Origin: Escherichia coli
GTDB taxonomy: Bacteria > Pseudomonadota > Gammaproteobacteria > Enterobacterales > Enterobacteriaceae
Direction: 5' to 3' (one strand)
Assembly (NCBI RefSeq): GCF_051903065.1
Contig: NZ_CP178438.1
DNA length: 64,000 nt
Positions 7,368-32,863 of the stretch are shown here, in pieces. Every line of letters starts with the position of its first letter. The stretch's first letter is position 1. The notes beneath the pieces were generated by a model that was not told where the DNA came from, ran no database searches, and saw only the letters and a program-made list of their open reading frames with translations. The position numbers and the translations under genes were made by a program.

Positions 7368-7943
7368 CTACGGCAGTGCTGGCCATTCAATATCCTGTGC
7401 AGTTGACGTATCAACACGGTTCAGCAATACCCGATACTTTTTCCATGCTTCCAGCAACGAGATTTCTTCCTCCGTTGCAATTTCCAGATCTGCAGCATCC
7501 TGAAGCGGCGCAATATGCTCACTGGCTACCTGCATCAGGTTGTTTTTTGTTTCTTCCGCCTCCCGGATCCGGAACAGTTTTTCTGCTTCCGTATCCTTCA
7601 CCCAGGCTGTGCCGTTCCACTTCTGAAACTCCCCTTCCGGCGATAACCAGGTAACATTTTCCGGTAACGGACCGAGTTCAGAAATAAATAACGCGTCGCC
7701 GGAAGCCACGTCATAGACGGTTTTTCCCCGATGATCTTCAACGAGATGCCACGATGCCTCATCACTGTTGAAAACAGCCACGAAGCCTGCCGGAATATCT
7801 GGCGGTGCAATATCGGTACTGTTTGCTGGCAGACCTGTATGAGGCGGAATATATGCGTCACCTTCACCAATAAATTCATTAGTTCCGGCCAGCAGATTAT
7901 AAATTTTTATGGTCTGTGGTTGTTCACTCATTCTGAATGCCAT
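7368..7943 (-). CDS. tfaQ: tail fibre assembly protein
   Basis: 191-aa ORF immediately downstream of tail fibre gene; Tfa-family organisation. Confidence 0.85.
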
Positions 7944-16809: not shown

Positions 16810-17080
16810 GATGTTACCGTAGTATGTGAGTATCCATCGAATAGACACCAAGCAAAAAAGCTCCCGAAGGAGCCTTCATTTTCACTTTTTTAAATCCAAC
16901 GACAGACGGCTGGCATTTAAGTATTGTGAAATATTATCAAATGTAATCATCATTGATTTACAAAAGATACATTTTGCCCCGAAAGGATTCATGTCAGAAA
17001 CATCAAAAGATGATGTTCTATACTGGGAACCATGACAACACGGGCATCTAAAGTGAATATGGTTTGTAATATTGTCTACC

Positions 17081-17293
17081 TCAAAGCGCCACTACATGAA
17101 CAGCGGCAGGACCTTTAGGTCCGTTCTCAATACCAAATTCAACTTCCTGATTCTCAGTTAATGTTTTGAAATCGTTGCTCTGAATTGCTGAGAAATGGAC
17201 AAACACATCTTTGCTGCCATCTTTCGGCGTGATGAAACCAAAACCTTTTTCAGGGTTAAACCATTTCACTAAACCAGTCATTTTGTTAGACAT
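17081..17293 (-). CDS. cspI: cold shock protein CspI (CspA family)
   Basis: 70-aa [26 protein letters not shown]... cold-shock domain RNP motifs. Confidence 0.9.
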
Positions 17294-17655
17294 AATTATT
17301 ACCTTTTGAAGAAATTAGCCCTTGGGCAGAATGGTCCGAAAAAAAATATCAGAGAGAAAAACCAACAAGGAAATCTCAAGAGGTACAAATAATAAAATTA
17401 TAACAATGACTGCTTCAGATAAATTTGTAACAAACCAGAACACCATTAACGCATGATTAACCACCCATAGCAAGGATTACTTTTGTAAAGAAAAACACAG
17501 CAATGAAAGAATAGCTTTATTTATTAATAAAACGTGTCATTCTGATTAAGACCTTTTATCTTACCCTTAAGATTTCAGGAATTTTGGCTCATGGAAGAGT
17601 CCTTTTTATTTAAATTTTACATTCCGCGATGTAAATGTTCCGATTTAATATTACC

Positions 17656-19600: not shown

Positions 19601-19963
19601 TTGATTTTATTAGTAACAAGTATTTTTTATATTTTAATAATATATTTAAAGCAGATAATAAAAAACCCGCCTGAGCGGGTTTGAGATTGTGGTGCTTTTT
19701 GTGGGAGTCATCCACTTACGCACTTTGTTTTGCGATGCCAGCAGTTAGCTTCTGCTGTGAAACTATTCATGCAGCAAACCTGCACTTCACCACAATGGTT
19801 AGCATACTTTTCCTGATTAAGATTTTGCCAAATATGCTGGCCATTGTTTCATGTATTGGACCTCCTTACTTTTTATTAAAGAGATCCAATATTCACTACT
19901 CTGTCCGTATCTCTACTCAGGCATCAGCCTTCTTCGTTATCGTATACAGACGAGCGATGAATT

Positions 19964-20179
19964 TTAATCAGTAATGATGACATTTACTGCTGCAGGACCT
20001 TTAGCACCACTCTCTATAGAGAAGGTAACCTTTTGACCTTCAAATAAGGTTCGATAATTATCATTCTGAATCGCAGAAAAATGCACAAACACATCTTTAC
20101 TACCATCAACAGGAGAAATAAAGCCGAAACCTTTATCAGCGTTAAACCATTTTACTAAACCAGTCATTTTATTTGACAT
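19964..20179 (-). CDS. cspB: cold shock protein CspB
   Basis: 71-aa [26 protein letters not shown]... Confidence 0.9.
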
Positions 20180-20489
20180 TCTACATTCCTTAACTTGAGC
20201 CTTTCGGCATAAATGGTTTGCATAACAGAAACGACTTCGTACTTAATTGGAGAGACTCAAAGAAGGAATAAGTGAATAACACCTGAAATGAGAACTGCTT
20301 TAGTAAACTACTTCGTATATCGTCTGTTCTTCAAACCGACGCAGTCATTAACTCATAGTTGAACATATGAAGCAATGTTTATTTTAGACATCCAGCCACC
20401 TTCAATCCTATCAAAAAAGTAGTTTTCTCCAGGAACGTGTGTATGGTGCACCAGGTTATCAGTATTAAGGAGTTTTTCTGTCCCCTAAA

Positions 20490-23741: not shown

Positions 23742-23897
23742 TTACTCCTCAGGTTCGTAAGCTGTGAAGACAGCGACCTCCGTCTGGCCGGTTCGGATTC
23801 GTACCTCGCAGAGGTCTTTCCTCGTTACCAGTGCCGTCACTATGACGGTTAAACAGATGACGATCAGGGCGATTAACATCGCCTTTTGCTGCTTCAT
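23742..23897 (-). CDS. hokD: Hok-family small membrane toxin (RelF)
   Basis: Hand translation: MKQQKAMLIALIVICLTVIVTALVTRKDLCEVRIRTGQTEVAVFTAYEPEE (51 aa); not in supplied ORF list. Confidence 0.85.
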   Translation of the reverse strand: MKQQKAMLIALIVICLTVIVTALVTRKDLCEVRIRTGQTEVAVFTAYEPEE

Positions 23898-23968
23898 AGC
23901 CTGCTTCTCCTGTCAACGCAAAGCAGAAGTGTCACCTTCGGTGCGAAACAGAGATGTCATGCTTTGGT

Positions 23969-24256
23969 TCAGAGAATGCGTTTGACCGCCTCGCTATATA
24001 CTTCCGAGCGTTCTCTTTTCCCAACAGAAATCACGAAAACGACAACTTTCTCGTCTATAACCTGGTATACAAGGCGATAGCCTGAAGACCGGAGCTTAAT
24101 CTTGTAACAATCAGGCATACCACGGAGCTTGTTTGCTTCAATCCGGGGTGACTCAAGTACTTCAACCAGCTTCTTTTTCAACTGTTCACGTACCGTCGAG
24201 CCCAGCTTTCGCCATTCCTTTAGTGCCCGCTCGTCAAAATCCAGAAAATACGCCAT
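23969..24256 (-). CDS. relE: RelE mRNA interferase toxin
   Basis: 95-aa ORF MAYFLDFDERALKEWRKLGSTVREQLKKKL... Confidence 0.9.
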   Translation of the reverse strand: MAYFLDFDERALKEWRKLGSTVREQLKKKLVEVLESPRIEANKLRGMPDCYKIKLRSSGYRLVYQVIDEKVVVFVISVGKRERSEVYSEAVKRIL

Positions 24257-24495
24257 CAGAGTTCATCCAGCGTCACACGTACTGGCTTAGGATTACGAAG
24301 CCGTTCTTTCACTATCTCCACAAGTTCAGCATCTTCATCACTCAGGAGTGTCTGTTTGAACGGCAAGCGTTCATTGTCAGCGATATACTCGAGCATGAGA
24401 CGAAGCGCTTCAGAAGGAGTTACACCCATTTTTTCAAGCGCGGCGTAAGAACGCGCTTTAAGTTCATCGTCAATACGCAGGTTAATGCTACCCAT
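24256..24495 (-). CDS. relB: RelB antitoxin
   Basis: 79-aa ORF MGSINLRIDDELKARSYA...; overlaps relE start. Confidence 0.9.
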   Translation of the reverse strand: MGSINLRIDDELKARSYAALEKMGVTPSEALRLMLEYIADNERLPFKQTLLSDEDAELVEIVKERLRNPKPVRVTLDEL

Positions 24496-24504
24496 GTCTT
24501 ACAC

Positions 24505-24535
24505 CTCTTGTAATTACAAATGTCATTACAAGTAT
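24505..24535. promoter_or_regulatory. relBE operator-like inverted repeats
   Basis: CTTGTAATTACAAATGTCATTACAAG: palindromic TTGTAAT/ATTACAA elements just upstream of relB. Confidence 0.55.
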
Positions 24536-24825
24536 CGCACTACAACATGCTTAGGGCAAGTCACGAAGGAAGTCAGAAAGTAGTCGTAAGAACGGTGATC
24601 ACTGTCCGCTTTGTGCCAGGAGCAGCCATTGCTAAGTCCATCCTGTATTGTGCAGGTCAGCTCGTTTTTAAAGAGTCCGGCCATCATCTTACTGGTACAG
24701 ACACCATATACTTTGTGACGGTCAGGCTACATATGCACAACTCAACTTATTCATCTATTTTTTGCTTTAGCATGTCAGTGTTGCTTTCTCGTCGGCGGGT
24801 GAGCGGTGACCTGACCTGTCGATAA
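24520..24825 (+). CDS. ydfV: prophage protein YdfV
   Basis: 101-aa ORF divergent from relB. Confidence 0.6.
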   Translation: MSLQVSHYNMLRASHEGSQKVVVRTVITVRFVPGAAIAKSILYCAGQLVFKESGHHLTGTDTIYFVTVRLHMHNSTYSSIFCFSMSVLLSRRRVSGDLTCR

Positions 24826-24977
24826 AGGAACGTAACACGTTTTATGCAACACCCGCATGCGGCAGAAAATTATTGCCGAACGTTTACCCCTGTCAACAAG
24901 CTTTACTTTCTGAGGCGCGCCAGCCCGCGAGGAAAACAATCTGAACATCAAACAATTAATGACACAAGAAATACGAT

Positions 24978-25004
24978 TAAAGATTTTTTTGTACATGCCG
25001 ATAG
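24978..25004 (+). promoter_or_regulatory. sigma-28 (FliA) type promoter upstream of flxA
   Basis: TAAAGATT-N11-GCCGATAG versus consensus TAAAGTTT-N11-GCCGATAA, 24 bp upstream of flxA ATG. Confidence 0.7.
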
Positions 25005-25027
25005 TGCTTTTTTAAAAGGAGAAATCT

Positions 25028-25360
25028 ATGTCTGTCACAATTCAGGGAAATACCTCAACCGTTATTTCAAACAACTCCGCCCCGGAAGGAACATCAGAAA
25101 TAGCCAAAATCACAAGACAAATTCAGGTGCTGACTGAAAAGCTTGGGAAAATCTCATCGGAAGAGGGGATGACGACACAGCAGAAAAAAGAAATGGCTGC
25201 ATTGGTACAGAAGCAAATTGAAAGCCTCTGGGCTCAACTGGAGCAGTTGTTAAGGCAGCAGGCAGAGAAAAAGAATGAAGACGCGACAGTTCAGCCTGAT
25301 AAAAAAGAAGAGAAAAAAGACGATACAAATACCGCTGGCACCATTGATATTTACGTCTAA
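25028..25360 (+). CDS. flxA: FliA-regulated protein FlxA
   Basis: 110-aa ORF MSVTIQGNTSTVISNNSAPEGTSEIAKITRQIQ... Confidence 0.85.
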   Translation: MSVTIQGNTSTVISNNSAPEGTSEIAKITRQIQVLTEKLGKISSEEGMTTQQKKEMAALVQKQIESLWAQLEQLLRQQAEKKNEDATVQPDKKEEKKDDTNTAGTIDIYV

Positions 25361-25374
25361 GTGACAGCCGTATT

Positions 25375-25397
25375 GTGGCCCTCATCGGGCCACTTTT
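25375..25397 (+). terminator. Rho-independent terminator after flxA
   Basis: GTGGCCC-TCATC-GGGCCAC followed by TTTT. Confidence 0.7.
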
Positions 25398-25796
25398 CGC
25401 CATCAGCCTTTTCTTTAAAGACATATTATCTTTGTATCATTTCTGATAGTTAACATTACAAGATATAAGTAATGGACGCACTCCCAATTAGTCTATTTAA
25501 ATCGCCACGAGTTTAACTGACAACCCATGATCAATTATGAATTGCAACTATTTCTGTAGTCACTTTTGTGGGGACAGTCCACAAAACTGCCAACTTCCGC
25601 TTCTTGCTCTTAGCGGACATTAGCATAGGCTATTTACCATAACGCCTCATTACGCACACCGCCCAGACTGACTCAGCGCGTTTCTGGCATATCCCCGGTA
25701 AAACAAGTAACAAACCACCCGAAAATGAACACCAGAAACGCGACTTAAGAATCTACCCTATGAATGGATATGCACTCAACCGAATCGATCTTGGTT

Positions 25797-27110
25797 TCAA
25801 TCTTTTTTATCGGGATCAGGCTTCTTTTTAGGTAACTTCGGGGGCTTAACTTGCTGATGACTTTGCGTTCGGCGCGTAAGCCAGGGATGGTCAGCTTTAG
25901 GTTTAACATAGTATTTTGAGCGTAAATCAATACGGGCATTATCCACTCGTTCATGGACACTCTTTTCATCATCCGGTGGTATAGGCTCCGGGCCATCAAC
26001 ATACTTTTCCCAGCCCAGCGCTTTCCCGTCATACAGAACGTTAATTTCACCGTCAAAGTTCTCGCATACAGTAACAACCGAATGCCTAAGTCGATATCCC
26101 CGGCCCTCACTGCGTACCTGAAACGCACTGCTTTTGTACTGGAAAGTGAGATTTTTAGACAGAACGCGCTTCGCCTGTAGGCTGAAGATATAACCCAGTT
26201 CCTCTTCAGAATGGTGCACATCAAGATGAGCATTATCAGTAGTACGAGGCGACGTAGCGAACCGGTTGTTATAGGCTTCAATAAAGGTCGGCAACCATGC
26301 ATTTGCTGTTTCAATATCACTGATATTCTGAAGCCGCATTTCTTTGACCAGCCTGTCCTGTAGTGTCTGATTGGCGCGCTCTACCCGCCCTTTTGCCTGC
26401 GGGCTGTTGGCATGGATTGGCTCGATGCCCAGTGTCTTTATCGCACGAGTGAACTGGGTCAGCTCACCTTCCCGCTCTGGGTTATTTACCCTGAATATAC
26501 TGTGTCTATCAGAGTAGAGAGCGAGCGGTACGCCATGATCATTAAGGTAACCCCGGAGGGTTTCCATGTAAGCCCGGGTTGTTTCAGCAGGCACAAAACG
26601 CAACGCCATCAACGCACTGGTGGCATCATCAATGAAAACGATCAGTGTACATCTGGGGCCTCGATTTTCAAACCAGTCATGAGATGAGCCATCAATCTGG
26701 ATCAGTTCACCGTAAGATGGTCGTCGCATGCGGCGTTGATATATACGGGCAATTTTACGACGGCGTTCACGCCATAACCCCTCTTCTATCATCCACTTTC
26801 TGAGAGTTTCAACGGATAAAGATAAACCGTGTATCTCGCGCAATTTTTCGCACGCAAACGTAGGTCCAAAATCAGCGTAACGGCCTTTGAGGAGTGAAAT
26901 TACTGTTGCTCTGAATTCAGTAGAAAAGGAATTATTAGGACGCTTTCCACGTCGGTGGGAAACCAGACCAGAAGGCCCTTCATTTCTATACCGTTGCACC
27001 AGACGTTTAACCTGCCGAATAGAAATGCCAATGCGTGCCGCAGCTTGTTCCTGAATAATCTGAAGTCGGTGGAGTTCCTTATGACTCATCGTAACAGTCT
27101 CTTTGATCAT
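25797..27110 (-). CDS. DDE transposase/integrase with N-terminal HTH and rve (retroviral-integrase-type) core; IS481/ISNCY-like, family not confirmed
   Basis: 437-aa ORF; motifs ...IQIDGSSHDWF..., ...VFIDDATS..., ...HANSPQAKGRVERANQTLQDRL...; element ends not identified. Confidence 0.7.
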   Translation of the reverse strand: MIKETVTMSHKELHRLQIIQEQAAARIGISIRQVKRLVQRYRNEGPSGLVSHRRGKRPNNSFSTEFRATVISLLKGRYADFGPTFACEKLREIHGLSLSVETLRKWMIEEGLWRERRRKIARIYQRRMRRPSYGELIQIDGSSHDWFENRGPRCTLIVFIDDATSALMALRFVPAETTRAYMETLRGYLNDHGVPLALYSDRHSIFRVNNPEREGELTQFTRAIKTLGIEPIHANSPQAKGRVERANQTLQDRLVKEMRLQNISDIETANAWLPTFIEAYNNRFATSPRTTDNAHLDVHHSEEELGYIFSLQAKRVLSKNLTFQYKSSAFQVRSEGRGYRLRHSVVTVCENFDGEINVLYDGKALGWEKYVDGPEPIPPDDEKSVHERVDNARIDLRSKYYVKPKADHPWLTRRTQSHQQVKPPKLPKKKPDPDKKD

Positions 27111-27444
27111 GAAAAATCCCCCAGAGAATTGTCTGGGGACATTTTAGAATGGTTCAAAGGGGACATTACAGCTTGGTGTTAACAATAGCCTGCTTCTCCG
27201 TGCCTTTCGGCACGTAAGAGGCTAACCTACATGTGTCTAGCATGAAATTGGCCTCAGATTAATGTTAAGCGTCTTGCAGGACGCGTAATGTTAACTGGGG
27301 CTTTTCTCTATCTGCCGTTGGTGTCCATGCCCGAGGCAGATAGCCTCAAGCACCCGCAGTCATTCTACTTAACTAAGATTTCCCCGCAAACCGTTTTTGT
27401 CCAGCACAGTAAATATCCAACTAAACCAATGGAGTTCGCTGTAT

Positions 27445-27624
27445 TTACCGCCAGTATTCAATGCACATGACCGCCATGAACACCCCTAAAAAAAGGGCAT
27501 TTATATATCCAAATATTAATATCAAAACATCAACTTTTTCCATATACCTTGCTGTGAAGATGATGGGCATACATGATGCGAACAACCAGAACGCAACAAA
27601 CAAAAACTGCAATGCGTTTTTCAT
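27445..27624 (-). CDS. small membrane protein, 59 aa, two predicted TM helices, unknown function
   Basis: AGGAGG 4 nt upstream of ATG; MKNALQFLFVAFWLFASCMPIIFTARYMEKVDVLILIFGYINALFLGVFMAVMCIEYWR. Confidence 0.5.
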   Translation of the reverse strand: MKNALQFLFVAFWLFASCMPIIFTARYMEKVDVLILIFGYINALFLGVFMAVMCIEYWR

Positions 27625-27878
27625 TATTCCTCCTACAATCAATGTGCAATTACATTTAAACACACCTCAATTTGGCCGGACATATAAATATCTAAACCAG
27701 AAAAAATCACTTACATAGCGTTACAAACTCTTTAGTCTAAAGGTTCATCGTAAAACATTCCCCATACTTATCAGTCCGTTCCGCGCCAGGTAGCTCATTG
27801 CCTTATCTGGCAACCTGTAATCAGGTTTCCGCTTTTTCAGTTGGCTGGTCGTTTAACCGACATAGTTAATCCATTAAT

Positions 27879-28166
27879 CTAGTTGCCGGATGTTGGTGGA
27901 TTTTCGCGTTTTAGTTGTTCATAAAAGTGCACAGCTTTAACCAGTTCTTCTGATGTAACTGGGACTGGTGAGGCAGTGAATAAGGCCTGAATTTGATAGT
28001 TCGGCCTGTCGTTACAATCCTCTTTTTTCGGTACATATTTCCAGTCACCAGACCACTACTTCCCCTGAAAGTCCGTAACGCCTTTTTTCACGTAGCGATA
28101 TCGCCATGCCACTGGTTTTGCTTGCCCCGCCGTTTCATGCCCTTCCTGATAATTAATCTCGCTCAT
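27879..28166 (-). pseudogene. small prophage ORF (95 codons) interrupted by one in-frame TAG at 28056-28058
   Basis: Hand translation MSEINYQEGHETAGQAKPVAWRYRYVKKGVTDFQGK-TAG-WSGDWKYVPKKEDCNDRPNYQIQALFTASPVPVTSEELVKAVHFYEQLKRENPPTSGN. Confidence 0.45.
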
Positions 28167-28354
28167 TCATCGCCCCACTCATCACAATATGCTTCGACCG
28201 GAGTTTTTCCCGCTTCATAGTCATCACGCTAGGATTCGACATCAGCAGCACTTCCACCGCGTAACTCACCATAGTCCATTAATAGTTCATCCCGCTCTTC
28301 AAAACTGATGTTATATTTAGCTGAACAAAAATCAGCCACTTTGTTCTTCCTCAT
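28163..28354 (-). pseudogene. small prophage ORF (63 codons) interrupted by one in-frame TAG at 28229-28231; stop overlaps next ORF start (ATGA)
   Basis: Hand translation MRKNKVADFCSAKYNISFEERDELLMDYGELRGGSAADVES-TAG-RDDYEAGKTPVEAYCDEWGDE. Confidence 0.45.
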
Positions 28355-28403
28355 CGTCTTTTATTTCGTGGTATGAGTAATTGCAGTAGTTAAAGAAAAT
28401 TTC

Positions 28404-28514
28404 TTATGCTCCGTCATGAATTTCCTCAGGTGTTGCGTCATCGTCCACTTCGAATACATCCTCAAAATCTCCACCAGCTATTCCCGTTTCAATAATAATT
28501 TTGAACTTTCGCAT
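28404..28514 (-). CDS. possible small acidic ORF (36 aa) at head of degenerate small-gene cluster
   Basis: MRKFKIIIETGIAGGDFEDVFEVDDDATPEEIHDGA; may itself be a fragment. Confidence 0.25.
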   Translation of the reverse strand: MRKFKIIIETGIAGGDFEDVFEVDDDATPEEIHDGA

Positions 28515-28776
28515 TTCACTACCGCCCTTTCGGGCGGCCTCCTGATGTTCTGAGGGTGCAGAAATCCATCCGGTTAAGGATTAAATTTTATTTACAGAAC
28601 TGAATTTAATTATTCAGATATACGTATCTGTAGCCTTACGAATCTACTCACTGGATGCCTCTTTCATAAAAATAATCCAGTGGGTTTTATCGTTTTTTCC
28701 CTGTTCGTTGACAGATAACAGGTTTTCTGTCTGTCAGTGCCAGAATCTGGCTTACCGGTATTTGCGTTTCATTCCA

Positions 28777-29133
28777 TTAAAAAATCAGAACGCCGTGCGG
28801 CCTCAACACCCGAAAGGCTTCTTTAAATCTCTGTCGCGAATCATCACGCCAGGCATCTTTATTCAGCCGTCCATATTTCTTTCCCATCCAGGCGTTATCA
28901 CCAACACTCTCAAGATGCGGAGGGTCTAATACAACCATCGAAAAAGATGCGTCTGCAAATGATAATGCACGAAAATCTGCGATAATGTCAGGGCTGATAA
29001 TCAAGCGTCTCCCATTGCGTAATGTGTATCCTTCTTTTCTGATATCGCTGAATATCGCCCGTTCGTCAGACTTATCGAACCAGAACATGCGGCTGCCACA
29101 GCACATATCAAGAATGGTTGCCGGTGCACTCAC
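28777..29133 (-). CDS. SAM-dependent methyltransferase-like protein, probably truncated (118 aa)
   Basis: Motif I-like LDMCCGSRM and motif IV-like VVLDPPH; ORF too short for a complete DNA methyltransferase. Confidence 0.5.
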   Translation of the reverse strand: MSAPATILDMCCGSRMFWFDKSDERAIFSDIRKEGYTLRNGRRLIISPDIIADFRALSFADASFSMVVLDPPHLESVGDNAWMGKKYGRLNKDAWRDDSRQRFKEAFRVLRPHGVLIF

Positions 29134-29552
29134 TGCGCCACGTCCTGAAAATTACCCTGATAGAAAGCCAGTATGCGCTGCATAACTTCGCTCTTCCGGC
29201 ACTCGCGACAGATTATGTTTAGGCGACTGTCGTAGCGACGTATTTCTCCGTCAGGTGATGACCAGATAAGGTCCGGATCAACCACAGCAGGTTTCTTCAC
29301 CTTTGCCCTCGAGAGTTTTTTGCGGGCGTTTTGCCAGTCCTTACGCGCCTGTTCAGAGGGGAATAACCCGTAGCCGGAGTTGTATACATCGCCACTGGCT
29401 ACCAGCTCTCTGGCAAGAACGCTCATCAGATATCTAGTCGCACCTGTTTTAGCTTCCAGTTGCCGTAACGTCTCACGGCCGCTCTGGCGCACGAGTTCCA
29501 CCACCTGCCATTTAATTTTTTCCCGCTCTTCTTGTGTAAAAACTTTTGCCAC
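29130..29552 (-). CDS. hypothetical protein (140 aa), translationally coupled to downstream methyltransferase-like gene
   Basis: Stop overlaps next start (ATGA at 29130-29133); HTH-like segment TLRQLEAKTGATRYLMSVLARELV. Confidence 0.5.
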   Translation of the reverse strand: MAKVFTQEEREKIKWQVVELVRQSGRETLRQLEAKTGATRYLMSVLARELVASGDVYNSGYGLFPSEQARKDWQNARKKLSRAKVKKPAVVDPDLIWSSPDGEIRRYDSRLNIICRECRKSEVMQRILAFYQGNFQDVAQ

Positions 29553-29592
29553 AAGTCCCCCTTAAAATTACCTCATGACCTGAAATCAACAC

Positions 29593-30558
29593 TTATCCTC
29601 TGAAACCAGGCGGAATTTCTGTATCCGGTTCAGAAATATGATTAACACAACGCTGTACAGGTGAACGTCCCAGGCGGATGACCAGTTCGTCCCATTTTTC
29701 GAGGAGCTTTGACGGGCTCATGATGTTTTTTACCCAGAATGGATCTCGCTGAACCCGACCAAACATTTCGCAAATTTGTCTGTGGCTTCTGCCATCCAGC
29801 ATCCGCATTGTGCGCACGTCATTGGCCCAGGCAGTCCAGTTAGGCTCTTTTGGTCGCATGATCTCGCCATCATCACTGGCTGCCTGTTCGTAGAGACCCA
29901 CGATCCGCCCCCAGATCCACTGCGCACACGCCAAATCCTCCCTGCTACCCCACTGGCGTTTTTTCGCACTAAACACAACCGCGTCGGAGTTCCGGGTTAA
30001 AAAATCCTGTTCAGTCGTCTGCGGGTCCGGTTGCGAAGCTTCCGGACGAAAAGTGTTTTTATTCTCTGTAGTAATCTCTGTTGTATTCTCTGTAAGATCA
30101 TCAGGCCATTTTGACCCGATGACATTGGGTCGTTTTGAACCAATGGAGCGTTTCATTTTGACCTCTTCCATCGTGTCATTTTGACCTGATGGAGCGGCGC
30201 ATTTTGAACCGATGGATTCGCTCAATTTGCCACCATCTAAAAGCTCGCTCCCATAGTTGATCGTGTAGAAATTGGTCATATCGCGCTTTGATTTATTGAG
30301 CTTTTCACAACGCAAAAGCCCCAGCGTTTTCAGACTTGCAAACGCGCGCTTTAACGTTGACTCTGACCAGAATGGGAACTGTTCCAGCCATTGTTCCGTT
30401 GTGTTATAAATCCAGCGAACACCATCACATTCCATGCCGGAGTTGGTATCTCTCAACCAGTAGTGCAGTTGTTGCAAAACAATGGCTTCGTTTAAGCCAA
30501 TTTTCATTGCCAGCTGCGTGTTTATAACCAGTGGGCGTTCAGCAAAAAGAAGGCTCAT
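29593..30558 (-). CDS. lambda O-like replication initiation protein
   Basis: ORF 29593-30612 (start probably Met at 30558); C-terminal region ...WANDVRTMRMLDGRSHRQICEMFG... resembles lambda gpO; iterons inside gene. Confidence 0.75.
   Translation of the reverse strand: MSLLFAERPLVINTQLAMKIGLNEAIVLQQLHYWLRDTNSGMECDGVRWIYNTTEQWLEQFPFWSESTLKRAFASLKTLGLLRCEKLNKSKRDMTNFYTINYGSELLDGGKLSESIGSKCAAPSGQNDTMEEVKMKRSIGSKRPNVIGSKWPDDLTENTTEITTENKNTFRPEASQPDPQTTEQDFLTRNSDAVVFSAKKRQWGSREDLACAQWIWGRIVGLYEQAASDDGEIMRPKEPNWTAWANDVRTMRMLDGRSHRQICEMFGRVQRDPFWVKNIMSPSKLLEKWDELVIRLGRSPVQRCVNHISEPDTEIPPGFRG
30105..30240. repeat. iteron array (5-6 copies, ~23-24 bp period) inside O-like gene: candidate replication origin
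   Basis: Repeated CATTTTGACC/CGTTTTGAACC...GATGGA units at ~30107, 30131, 30154, 30177, 30201, 30224; flanked by AT-rich TCTCTGT repeats. Confidence 0.7.
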
Positions 30559-31060
30559 AATTCCATCCAGCTTTTTGTTGGTATTGCTGTCGATACGCAA
30601 GTTTGAAAGCAATTGCTTTTTCTATAAGTTCGTCAGTTTCACGATCCACTACGGCAGGATCAGCAAAAAGCAGTCCGGACTCCACCACATCGCCATATTC
30701 TTTGTTTAACCCGGCGATCATGCACGTGATGCTTTTTCCGTCAGTAATTTCACGATACAACCTGAAATCATTAATCCGGATAGCCTCCATAATTGCAGGC
30801 ACTAGCGCCGTGAACTTTTCACGCTTATCCCTGGTGTCGATAGCCTTCCAGCGTTCAAATATCTTCACTCGATTAACGCCAAGCGCTCGCTGATCAATCG
30901 CGCCACCTTCATATGTGACACGCTGAACATCGATGTTCGGGCGCTCTTTCAAAGCCCAGAATGCTTCAGTGATTAATATCGTCGCCTGCTCCTGTGTCAT
31001 TCCTGGTCGACATATCCAGGCATCCAGAGCCTCACGAGCCTGTTCAGGAGTGATTTTCAT
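30539..31060 (-). CDS. YdaT-like protein (cII-position regulator analog)
   Basis: 173-aa ORF downstream of cro-like dicC; ...DKREKFTALVPAIMEAI... resembles Rac YdaT by memory. Confidence 0.55.
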   Translation of the reverse strand: MKITPEQAREALDAWICRPGMTQEQATILITEAFWALKERPNIDVQRVTYEGGAIDQRALGVNRVKIFERWKAIDTRDKREKFTALVPAIMEAIRINDFRLYREITDGKSITCMIAGLNKEYGDVVESGLLFADPAVVDRETDELIEKAIAFKLAYRQQYQQKAGWNYEPSFC

Positions 31061-32805: not shown

Positions 32806-32863
32806 TTTCTGGTGACGTTTGGCGGTATCAGTTTTACTCCGTGACTGCTCTGCCGCCCTTTTT
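32806..32863 (+). ncRNA. dicF: DicF small regulatory RNA (ftsZ-targeting)
   Basis: TTTCTGGTGACGTTTGGCGGTATCAGTTTTACTCCGTGACTGCTCTGCCGCCCTTTTT matches remembered DicF with intrinsic terminator; ends approximate. Confidence 0.8.

Follow-up and report, generated by a model that had tools for sequence, protein, structure and literature searches.

A candidate gene for a 59-residue membrane protein in the nin region of Qin-type prophages of Escherichia coli

The window analysed here is a stretch of 64,000 nucleotides from Escherichia coli (RefSeq assembly GCF_051903065.1, contig NZ_CP178438.1), with positions counted from its first letter. Its minus strand carries, at 27445–27624, an open reading frame (ORF) of 59 codons, here called the target. 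We consider it probable that the target is a real protein-coding gene. The fuller reading, namely that with the target Qin-type lambdoid prophages of E. coli carry as cargo a genuine but unannotated gene for a small inner-membrane protein, is given less assurance and is slightly favoured. Among the small membrane proteins encoded by prophages, a broad class, the target is best filed as a narrowly distributed addition.

Coding evidence from the reading frame and a distant paralog

The target (59 codons and a stop: MKNALQFLFVAFWLFASCMPIIFTARYMEKVDVLILIFGYINALFLGVFMAVMCIEYWR) runs from an ATG at 27624–27622 to a TAA at 27447–27445. A Shine–Dalgarno sequence, AGGAGG (27629–27634, minus strand), precedes the start codon with a 4-nt spacer (AATA), and its duplex with the 3' end of the 16S rRNA is predicted at −10.2 kcal/mol. 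An earlier note on this DNA had described a 59-amino-acid ORF with a strong ribosome-binding site; both parts of that description hold, and the translation it quoted is identical. An A>G variant at 27631, giving AGGGGG, is found in 43 of 167 sequences, with a duplex of −9.3 kcal/mol. An ORF of at least 59 codons combined with a Shine–Dalgarno-like 5-mer 3–16 nt upstream arises in only 0.14% of composition-matched random regions. Some GenBank records use an alternative GTG start at 27663, which lengthens the product to 72 amino acids. The conserved start is nevertheless the ATG that gives 59 amino acids, because in the paralog described next a stop lies in frame, six codons ahead of the ATG.

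An exhaustive phmmer/HMMER search over 1.84 billion representative proteins returned one distant family, P0037/P0042 (E = 1.2e-8), which forms a second clade. This paralog also has 59 amino acids, aligns without gaps, has the same start and stop, and is identical to the target at 24 of 59 residues (41%). The conserved residues are M1, L5, L8, W13, S17, C18, P20, I21, I22 and T24, and, in the C-terminal half, L36, F38, G39, N42, A43, L44, F49, I55, E56, W58 and R59. In 200,000 segment-preserving shuffles the number of identities never exceeded 20. At the nucleotide level, identity between target and paralog is 58%, 72% and 48% at the first, second and third codon positions, while the flanks are unalignable. 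The NG86 estimates between the clades are 0.45 for nonsynonymous divergence (dN) and 2.33 for synonymous divergence (dS; saturated), a ratio of 0.19. In a neutral simulation at equal divergence, the start, the stop and the open frame all survived in 0.15% of trials (P = 0.0015). By these sequence comparisons the second clade is under purifying selection relative to the first, and this is the best evidence that the target codes.

The condition of the reading frame in related prophages points the same way. Loci were picked from IMG/VR solely by a 30-mer that lies 113 nt upstream of the target, and the 59-codon frame is intact in 114 of the 117 so selected; the three exceptions are two indels in a run of seven Ts and one rearrangement. 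Among the 87 loci with long flanks, the target is intact in 86 of 87 copies and hok in 65 of 66. The small genes immediately upstream are broken more often in the same loci, with intact copies in 54 of 74 cases for DUF7167, 55 of 75 for the second small gene and 20 of 85 for an 85-amino-acid ORF. For the 1.9-kb flanks, which were too mosaic for a multiple alignment, reference-based profiles were used. The earlier note had made its reading depend on conservation of the frame among homologous regions, and the frame is indeed conserved, both in these loci and as the same 59 codons in the paralog.

Several observations weigh against a coding gene. They favour instead a non-functional ORF, arisen by chance or decaying, in the AT-rich stretch that separates the small nin genes from the hok/sok promoter, with a hydrophobic translation that comes from the T-rich strand. 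We regard this alternative as unlikely. The length of the ORF is not significant by itself, since an ATG-initiated ORF of at least 59 amino acids is present in 14% of random 342-nt regions with matching first-order composition. The target has a G+C content of 37%, compared with 48% for the window. T makes up 52% of its second codon positions on a coding strand that is 38% T, and such a strand gives hydrophobic codons through composition alone. All nine segregating sites within the target clade are nonsynonymous and none is synonymous, and by this measure the target frame is the worst of the six. Calculated from site counts, the 9:0 pattern has a probability of about 0.15 under neutrality and of 0.005–0.03 if omega is 0.3–0.5, as in neighbouring genes. 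Substitution within the clade is therefore unlike purifying selection, with little power in the comparison. Diversity in the ORF (5.0%) is close to that of the upstream spacer (6.1%).

Further points on the same side concern allele integrity and annotation. Insertion or deletion in the T7 run of the coding strand (CTT TTT TTA; 27488–27494, minus strand) produces frameshifted alleles of 55 (T8) and 45 (T6) amino acids, and many truncated or chimeric alleles occur in protein databases. All copies within each clade are at least 95% identical, so frame retention there has little power. The paralog itself came from a protein database, which cannot hold decayed copies. RefSeq, annotated by the Prokaryotic Genome Annotation Pipeline (PGAP), has no annotation over the target in any of 60 genomes sampled across the ranking. 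The family consists of the two clades only and is confined to E. coli/Shigella. A full-text literature search by peptide sequence and for small nin-region membrane proteins found no paper on the target, and the literature searched held no transcription, translation or phenotype data on it.

What tells against a non-functional ORF is, firstly, the strong Shine–Dalgarno sequence at the right distance, jointly with the ORF; secondly, a paralog that shares length, start and stop and shows the codon-position pattern, the low dN/dS and the frame retention given above; and lastly, the persistence of an intact target where adjacent genes are broken. In addition, the common variants (A16V, V31I, I37M, Y40H and M53T) are confined to alignment columns that also differ between the clades. 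The T7 run also forms an in-frame T TTT TTA heptamer. Programmed −1 frameshifting at this site is unlikely, since the heptamer is not conserved in the paralog.

The opposite strand offers a competing ORF of 85 codons (27461–27718, plus strand), which is entered in GenBank phage records as ‘hornerin’ or a hypothetical protein. No other ORF in the region is longer, and three phage records annotate it. Of the nine polymorphisms in the target span, however, seven are nonsynonymous in its frame too, the paralog locus has no antisense ORF of 40 amino acids or more, and the ORF opposes the direction of the operon and has no PGAP call. It is very improbable that this ORF is the real gene, and the ‘hornerin’ annotation is probably a spurious call.

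Prophage setting and distribution

The prophage is a lambdoid one of Qin type, and the target sits, co-oriented, in the nin region of its early-right operon, which runs from dicC/cro through replication to Q. The minus strand carries, in order, dicC (cro-like), a ydaT-like gene, an O-like replication gene (29593–30612), DUF977, a methyltransferase, three broken small genes and the target; after these come the hok/sok leader, an insertion, hokD, rem, ydfU and the Q antiterminator. The three small genes (27745–28514, minus strand; DUF7167, a 58-amino-acid acidic protein and an 85-amino-acid basic ORF) are broken by stops or frameshifts in the window, and all three are intact in phage vB_EcoS-813R8. 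Between the end of the broken 85-amino-acid ORF and the target lies an AT-rich spacer (27625–27744, minus strand).

MG1655 lacks positions 25982–30780 of the window (4.8 kb), and with them most of a transposase ORF, the target, the hok leader, the methyltransferase, DUF977, the O-like gene and part of the ydaT-like gene. Because of this deletion the target is not a K-12 gene, and K-12 has the fragments ydfW and ydfX. The earlier note had placed the ORF in a prophage accessory segment and had not recognised it as a named K-12 gene; the nin region of a Qin-type prophage and the deletion in MG1655 agree with both statements. The segment deleted in MG1655 is present in NZ_CP026085.1, a 4.83-Mb record labelled E. 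coli DH5alpha, of which the label or the lineage may be wrong.

Downstream of the target, a short spacer without a terminator (27403–27444, minus strand) leads to the left edge of a hok/sok module. The hok/sok 5' leader (27184–27355, minus strand) matches the Rfam sok family (RF01794) with 104 bits. It is orphaned in the window: the hokD coding sequence (23742–23897, minus strand) lies beyond a 3.27-kb insert (23912–27184) that holds relB, relE, ydfV, flxA and an ISNCY-type transposase ORF (25797–27110), and the breakpoint is at the hok start codon. At other hok loci, in thousands of genomes, alignment to the window begins only at about 27402 and the DNA upstream differs. The target as part of the hok/sok module is ruled out on this account; it forms a module of its own, whose end lies about 43 nt short of the hok module.

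The slot just before hok/sok is variable. It is occupied by DUF551 and DUF4014 genes in O157 and by a HEPN-domain protein in strain VE-V10-F. Such a protein, of 310 amino acids, stands between DUF977 and hok/sok in the lambdoid prophage of NZ_AP027971.1 (1575–2507 of the extracted locus), which suggests that the slot is a hotspot for defence or accessory cargo. Three sequenced temperate phages, PhiR42_1, vB_EcoS-813R8 and vB_EcoS-640R1, carry the target at 98–100% identity, in the same orientation and between the replication genes and Q. In vB_EcoS-813R8, an intact hok gene lies directly 3' of it.

Of 5426 complete E. coli genomes, 1566 contain the target clade, in every case with at least 95% identity, and 1045 contain the paralog, among them the type strain (DSM 30083 = ATCC 11775) and the B2 strain LF82. 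Strain ATCC 8739 is one carrier of the target. These are separate tallies and the two sets may overlap. Some GenBank submissions label the target ‘hypothetical protein’ or ‘membrane protein’, with 59 or 72 amino acids. The paralog, too, has no RefSeq annotation. Neither a profile of both clades nor a scan across 100,044 species, each represented by one genome, turned up a third clade. The sole hit was a contig from a ‘Collinsella’ sp. metagenome-assembled genome (JAIJJM010000167.1, 1662–1838 of the extracted locus). It is 100% identical and is most likely mis-binned E. coli prophage DNA, that is, contamination.

The paralog occupies a different site. Its locus (CP042246.1, 5984–8258 of the extracted locus) is a decayed island of 2.3 kb between ttcA with an integrase fragment on one side and uspF on the other. 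We take the ttcA–uspF site to be the Rac prophage integration site in K-12. The island also holds fragments of an ABC-3 permease, and the paralog is its only intact ORF of plausible coding character. Polymorphism in the island amounts to a few differences only.

Membrane architecture of the predicted protein

The predicted protein has two Kyte–Doolittle peaks, at residues ~4–24 and ~33–55. An AlphaFold2 model built from a seven-sequence family alignment has helices at 2–24 and 31–58, with a moderate mean pLDDT of 72. Two hydrophobic helices, as the earlier note had proposed, are thus recovered by both approaches. The first hydrophobic segment (residues 4–24; 27553–27615, minus strand) would be either a transmembrane helix or the h-region and lipobox of a signal peptide. 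The second (residues 33–55; 27460–27528, minus strand) contains the conserved F38-G39, N42-A43-L44 and F49. Charged residues comprise K2 at the N-terminus (R2 and K3 in the paralog) and E56...R59 at the C-terminus, with a neutral or acidic loop of seven to eight residues between the helices. This distribution suggests an N-in/C-in hairpin, with both ends in the cytoplasm and a very short periplasmic loop. Conserved small or polar residues within the helices (S17, C18, P20, T24, G39 and N42), together with the terminal IExWR, suggest specific packing or a membrane partner rather than unspecific membrane damage.

Searches of Pfam, NCBIfam, PHROGs, PADLOC and PDB sequences at permissive thresholds (E ≤ 1 for Pfam) gave no match to the target. 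Comparison of the AlphaFold2 hairpin with PDB and BFVD folds returned only non-significant, generic helical hairpins, a result that is uninformative for a 59-residue hairpin. The earlier note had suggested a toxin, a holin-like protein or a superinfection-exclusion or abortive-infection factor; these searches placed the target in no such family by sequence or fold, and the suggestions stay at the level of guesses.

Bacterial lipoproteins follow a PROSITE-type rule: a positively charged n-region, an uncharged h-region and a lipobox of the form [LIVMF..]-[..]-[AGS]-C, with the cysteine at position 15–35. The motif F15-A16-S17-C18 (27571–27582, minus strand) resembles such a lipobox, and this raises the possibility, from sequence, that the protein is a lipoprotein instead of a two-helix hairpin. 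Residues 1–17 would then be a signal peptide for signal peptidase II and Cys18 would be lipidated, leaving a mature peptide of 42 amino acids with a lipid anchor and one transmembrane helix (33–55). We rate this as rather unlikely. Both clades have K or R within the first three residues, then an uncharged hydrophobic stretch and then L-F-A-S-C18 or I-V-I-S-C18, and S17 and C18 are invariant in both. The lipobox rule is satisfied in both, and by only 6–7% of shuffles of residues 4–24. Conservation between clades is also lower in residues 1–16 (4 of 16) than in residues 17–59 (20 of 43). However, position −3 is F or V where L is usual, and six more hydrophobic residues (MPIIFT) follow the cysteine, for a total of 21, which is the length of a membrane helix. 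Moreover, AlphaFold2 gives one continuous helix from 2 to 24, and Pfam shows no match to a lipid-attachment site. Lipidation would alter biogenesis and not necessarily function, and it would bring the protein nearer to the exclusion lipoproteins Llp of T5 and Cor. Four features are absent from the earlier note: the lipobox-like motif, the hok/sok leader next to the target, the second clade, and the fact that every polymorphism within the target clade is nonsynonymous.

Possible functions and nearby features

A consensus scan of 27100–28300 found no sigma-70-like promoter (the scan is strict and missed the hok promoter too), and candidates picked by eye were poor. The same scan found no terminator between the target and the hok promoter. 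With no promoter or terminator of its own detected, the target is most simply an operon gene expressed on derepression. It would probably be transcribed from the DicA-repressed early-right promoter once that is derepressed, and translated efficiently.

Given that the gene is real, the leading guess, by analogy and still a tentative one, is an inner-membrane modulator or exclusion factor. Such a protein would bind and modulate a host inner-membrane protein, as do the small exclusion proteins with which phages block the entry of DNA. T4 Imm and HK97 gp15, both short phage proteins of the inner membrane, have hydrophobic helices and act on host membrane components used in DNA entry. The target resembles them in being short, phage-encoded and hydrophobic, but shares no sequence or fold similarity with them in Pfam, PHROGs, PADLOC or BFVD. 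Their genes are expressed in the lysogen or right after infection, whereas the target has no detected promoter of its own. Expression in the lysogen, which exclusion needs, is therefore unsupported.

If Cys18 is lipidated, T5 Llp and the Cor proteins of phi80 and N15 offer a further comparison, as small phage-made envelope lipoproteins. Llp and Cor, however, are outer-membrane lipoproteins with soluble domains, while the mature part of the target would be 42 amino acids, mostly a membrane helix. A precedent from Qin itself is DicB, a small protein that reportedly protects against phage via inner-membrane proteins (10.1101/708461). Like the target, DicB is a small Qin protein; it is normally repressed by DicA, and it affects inner-membrane proteins and phage sensitivity. 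Unlike the target, it is a soluble protein from the leftward dicBF operon, and the two sequences are unrelated.

Nearly as likely as the modulator, given a real gene, is a membrane-depolarising toxin or lysis helper, with something else making up the remainder. On this reading, drawn from analogy and unlikely overall, the protein would be made on induction, insert in the inner membrane and collapse its potential, as GhoT and Hok do, thereby aiding host shut-off or lysis. GhoT is a type V toxin of E. coli with 57 amino acids and two transmembrane helices. The target is similar in architecture only: it is of near-equal size, with two helices (2–24 and 31–58), a short loop and almost no soluble part. 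It differs in lacking a Pfam or PADLOC match to GhoT or OrtT, in having broken small nin genes and the hok/sok leader as neighbours rather than a GhoS-like antitoxin gene, and in its setting in a prophage nin region.

The location of the target, in the induced early-right operon and directly upstream of a hok/sok module, also fits a toxin, and the lack of a detected promoter is consistent with expression on induction only. At the equivalent place in Sp5, hokW-sokW assists lysis and phage release (PMC8621323). Hok/Gef genes, including that one, likewise encode small inner-membrane peptides in the same part of lambdoid prophages and are expressed on induction. The target nevertheless lacks their hallmarks, namely a single helix followed by a periplasmic tail, a long and structured mRNA that includes mok, and a Sok antisense RNA. 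It has no match to PF01848 (Hok/Gef), and the Rfam sok match covers 27184–27355 only, with nothing reaching threshold over 27445–27624. More generally, no toxin model in Pfam or PADLOC matches the target, and neither an antitoxin gene nor an antisense RNA family over it was found. It is stable in cryptic elements at two loci with no evident antidote, and the polar residues conserved within its membrane helices point to specific contacts.

A class II holin or pinholin would also be a small phage protein with two hydrophobic helices, and weak, non-significant fold matches (E > 6) bear the label holin. However, the target lies in the nin region at 27.4 kb, about 8 kb from the lysis cassette essQ-ydfR-rrrQ-rzpQ (~17.7–19.2 kb). 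It has no dual start and no charged C-terminal tail, the protein ending in EYWR four residues past helix 2, and neither Pfam nor PHROGs gives a family match. A holin is accordingly most improbable.

More speculatively, the two clades could represent an unrecognised, E. coli-specific family of 59-amino-acid, prophage-derived membrane microproteins, possibly lipid-anchored, that is kept intact at two chromosomal sites, in prophage remnants that are otherwise decaying, for host benefit, for instance as a new phage-exclusion factor directed at an inner-membrane component of entry. We think this unlikely. Were it true, the all-nonsynonymous polymorphism would reflect an arms race.

Returning to the favoured reading of an inner-membrane cargo protein, the gene, if real, specifies a protein of about one-fifth to about one-third of sequenced E. 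coli genomes, per locus at two loci, that is missing from RefSeq. It would join the small membrane proteins, a growing set, that annotation pipelines skip. Examples of short genes from Qin are YnfQ, YnfR, YnfS and YnfU, which were reportedly missed by pipelines until targeted ribosome profiling (10.1101/511675). Those genes are present in MG1655 with evidence of translation, whereas the target lies in the segment that MG1655 has deleted. Prophage nin regions often contain orphan small hydrophobic ORFs, and the target indicates no new principle. Cargo genes of lambdoid prophages often decide conflicts between phages or between phage and host, through exclusion, abortive infection or lysis timing, which makes the target an inexpensive and clearly defined choice for an expression and phage-challenge screen.

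A terminator-like hairpin with a T-tract (27812–27840, plus strand) lies some 190 nt ahead of the target start, in antisense orientation to the nin operon; the consensus scan found no plus-strand promoter to match it. Elsewhere in the window, Rfam matches comprise IS009 (7402–7600, minus strand), two cspA-type thermoregulator leaders (17054–17439 and 19917–20340, both minus strand) and DicF (32807–32858, plus strand).

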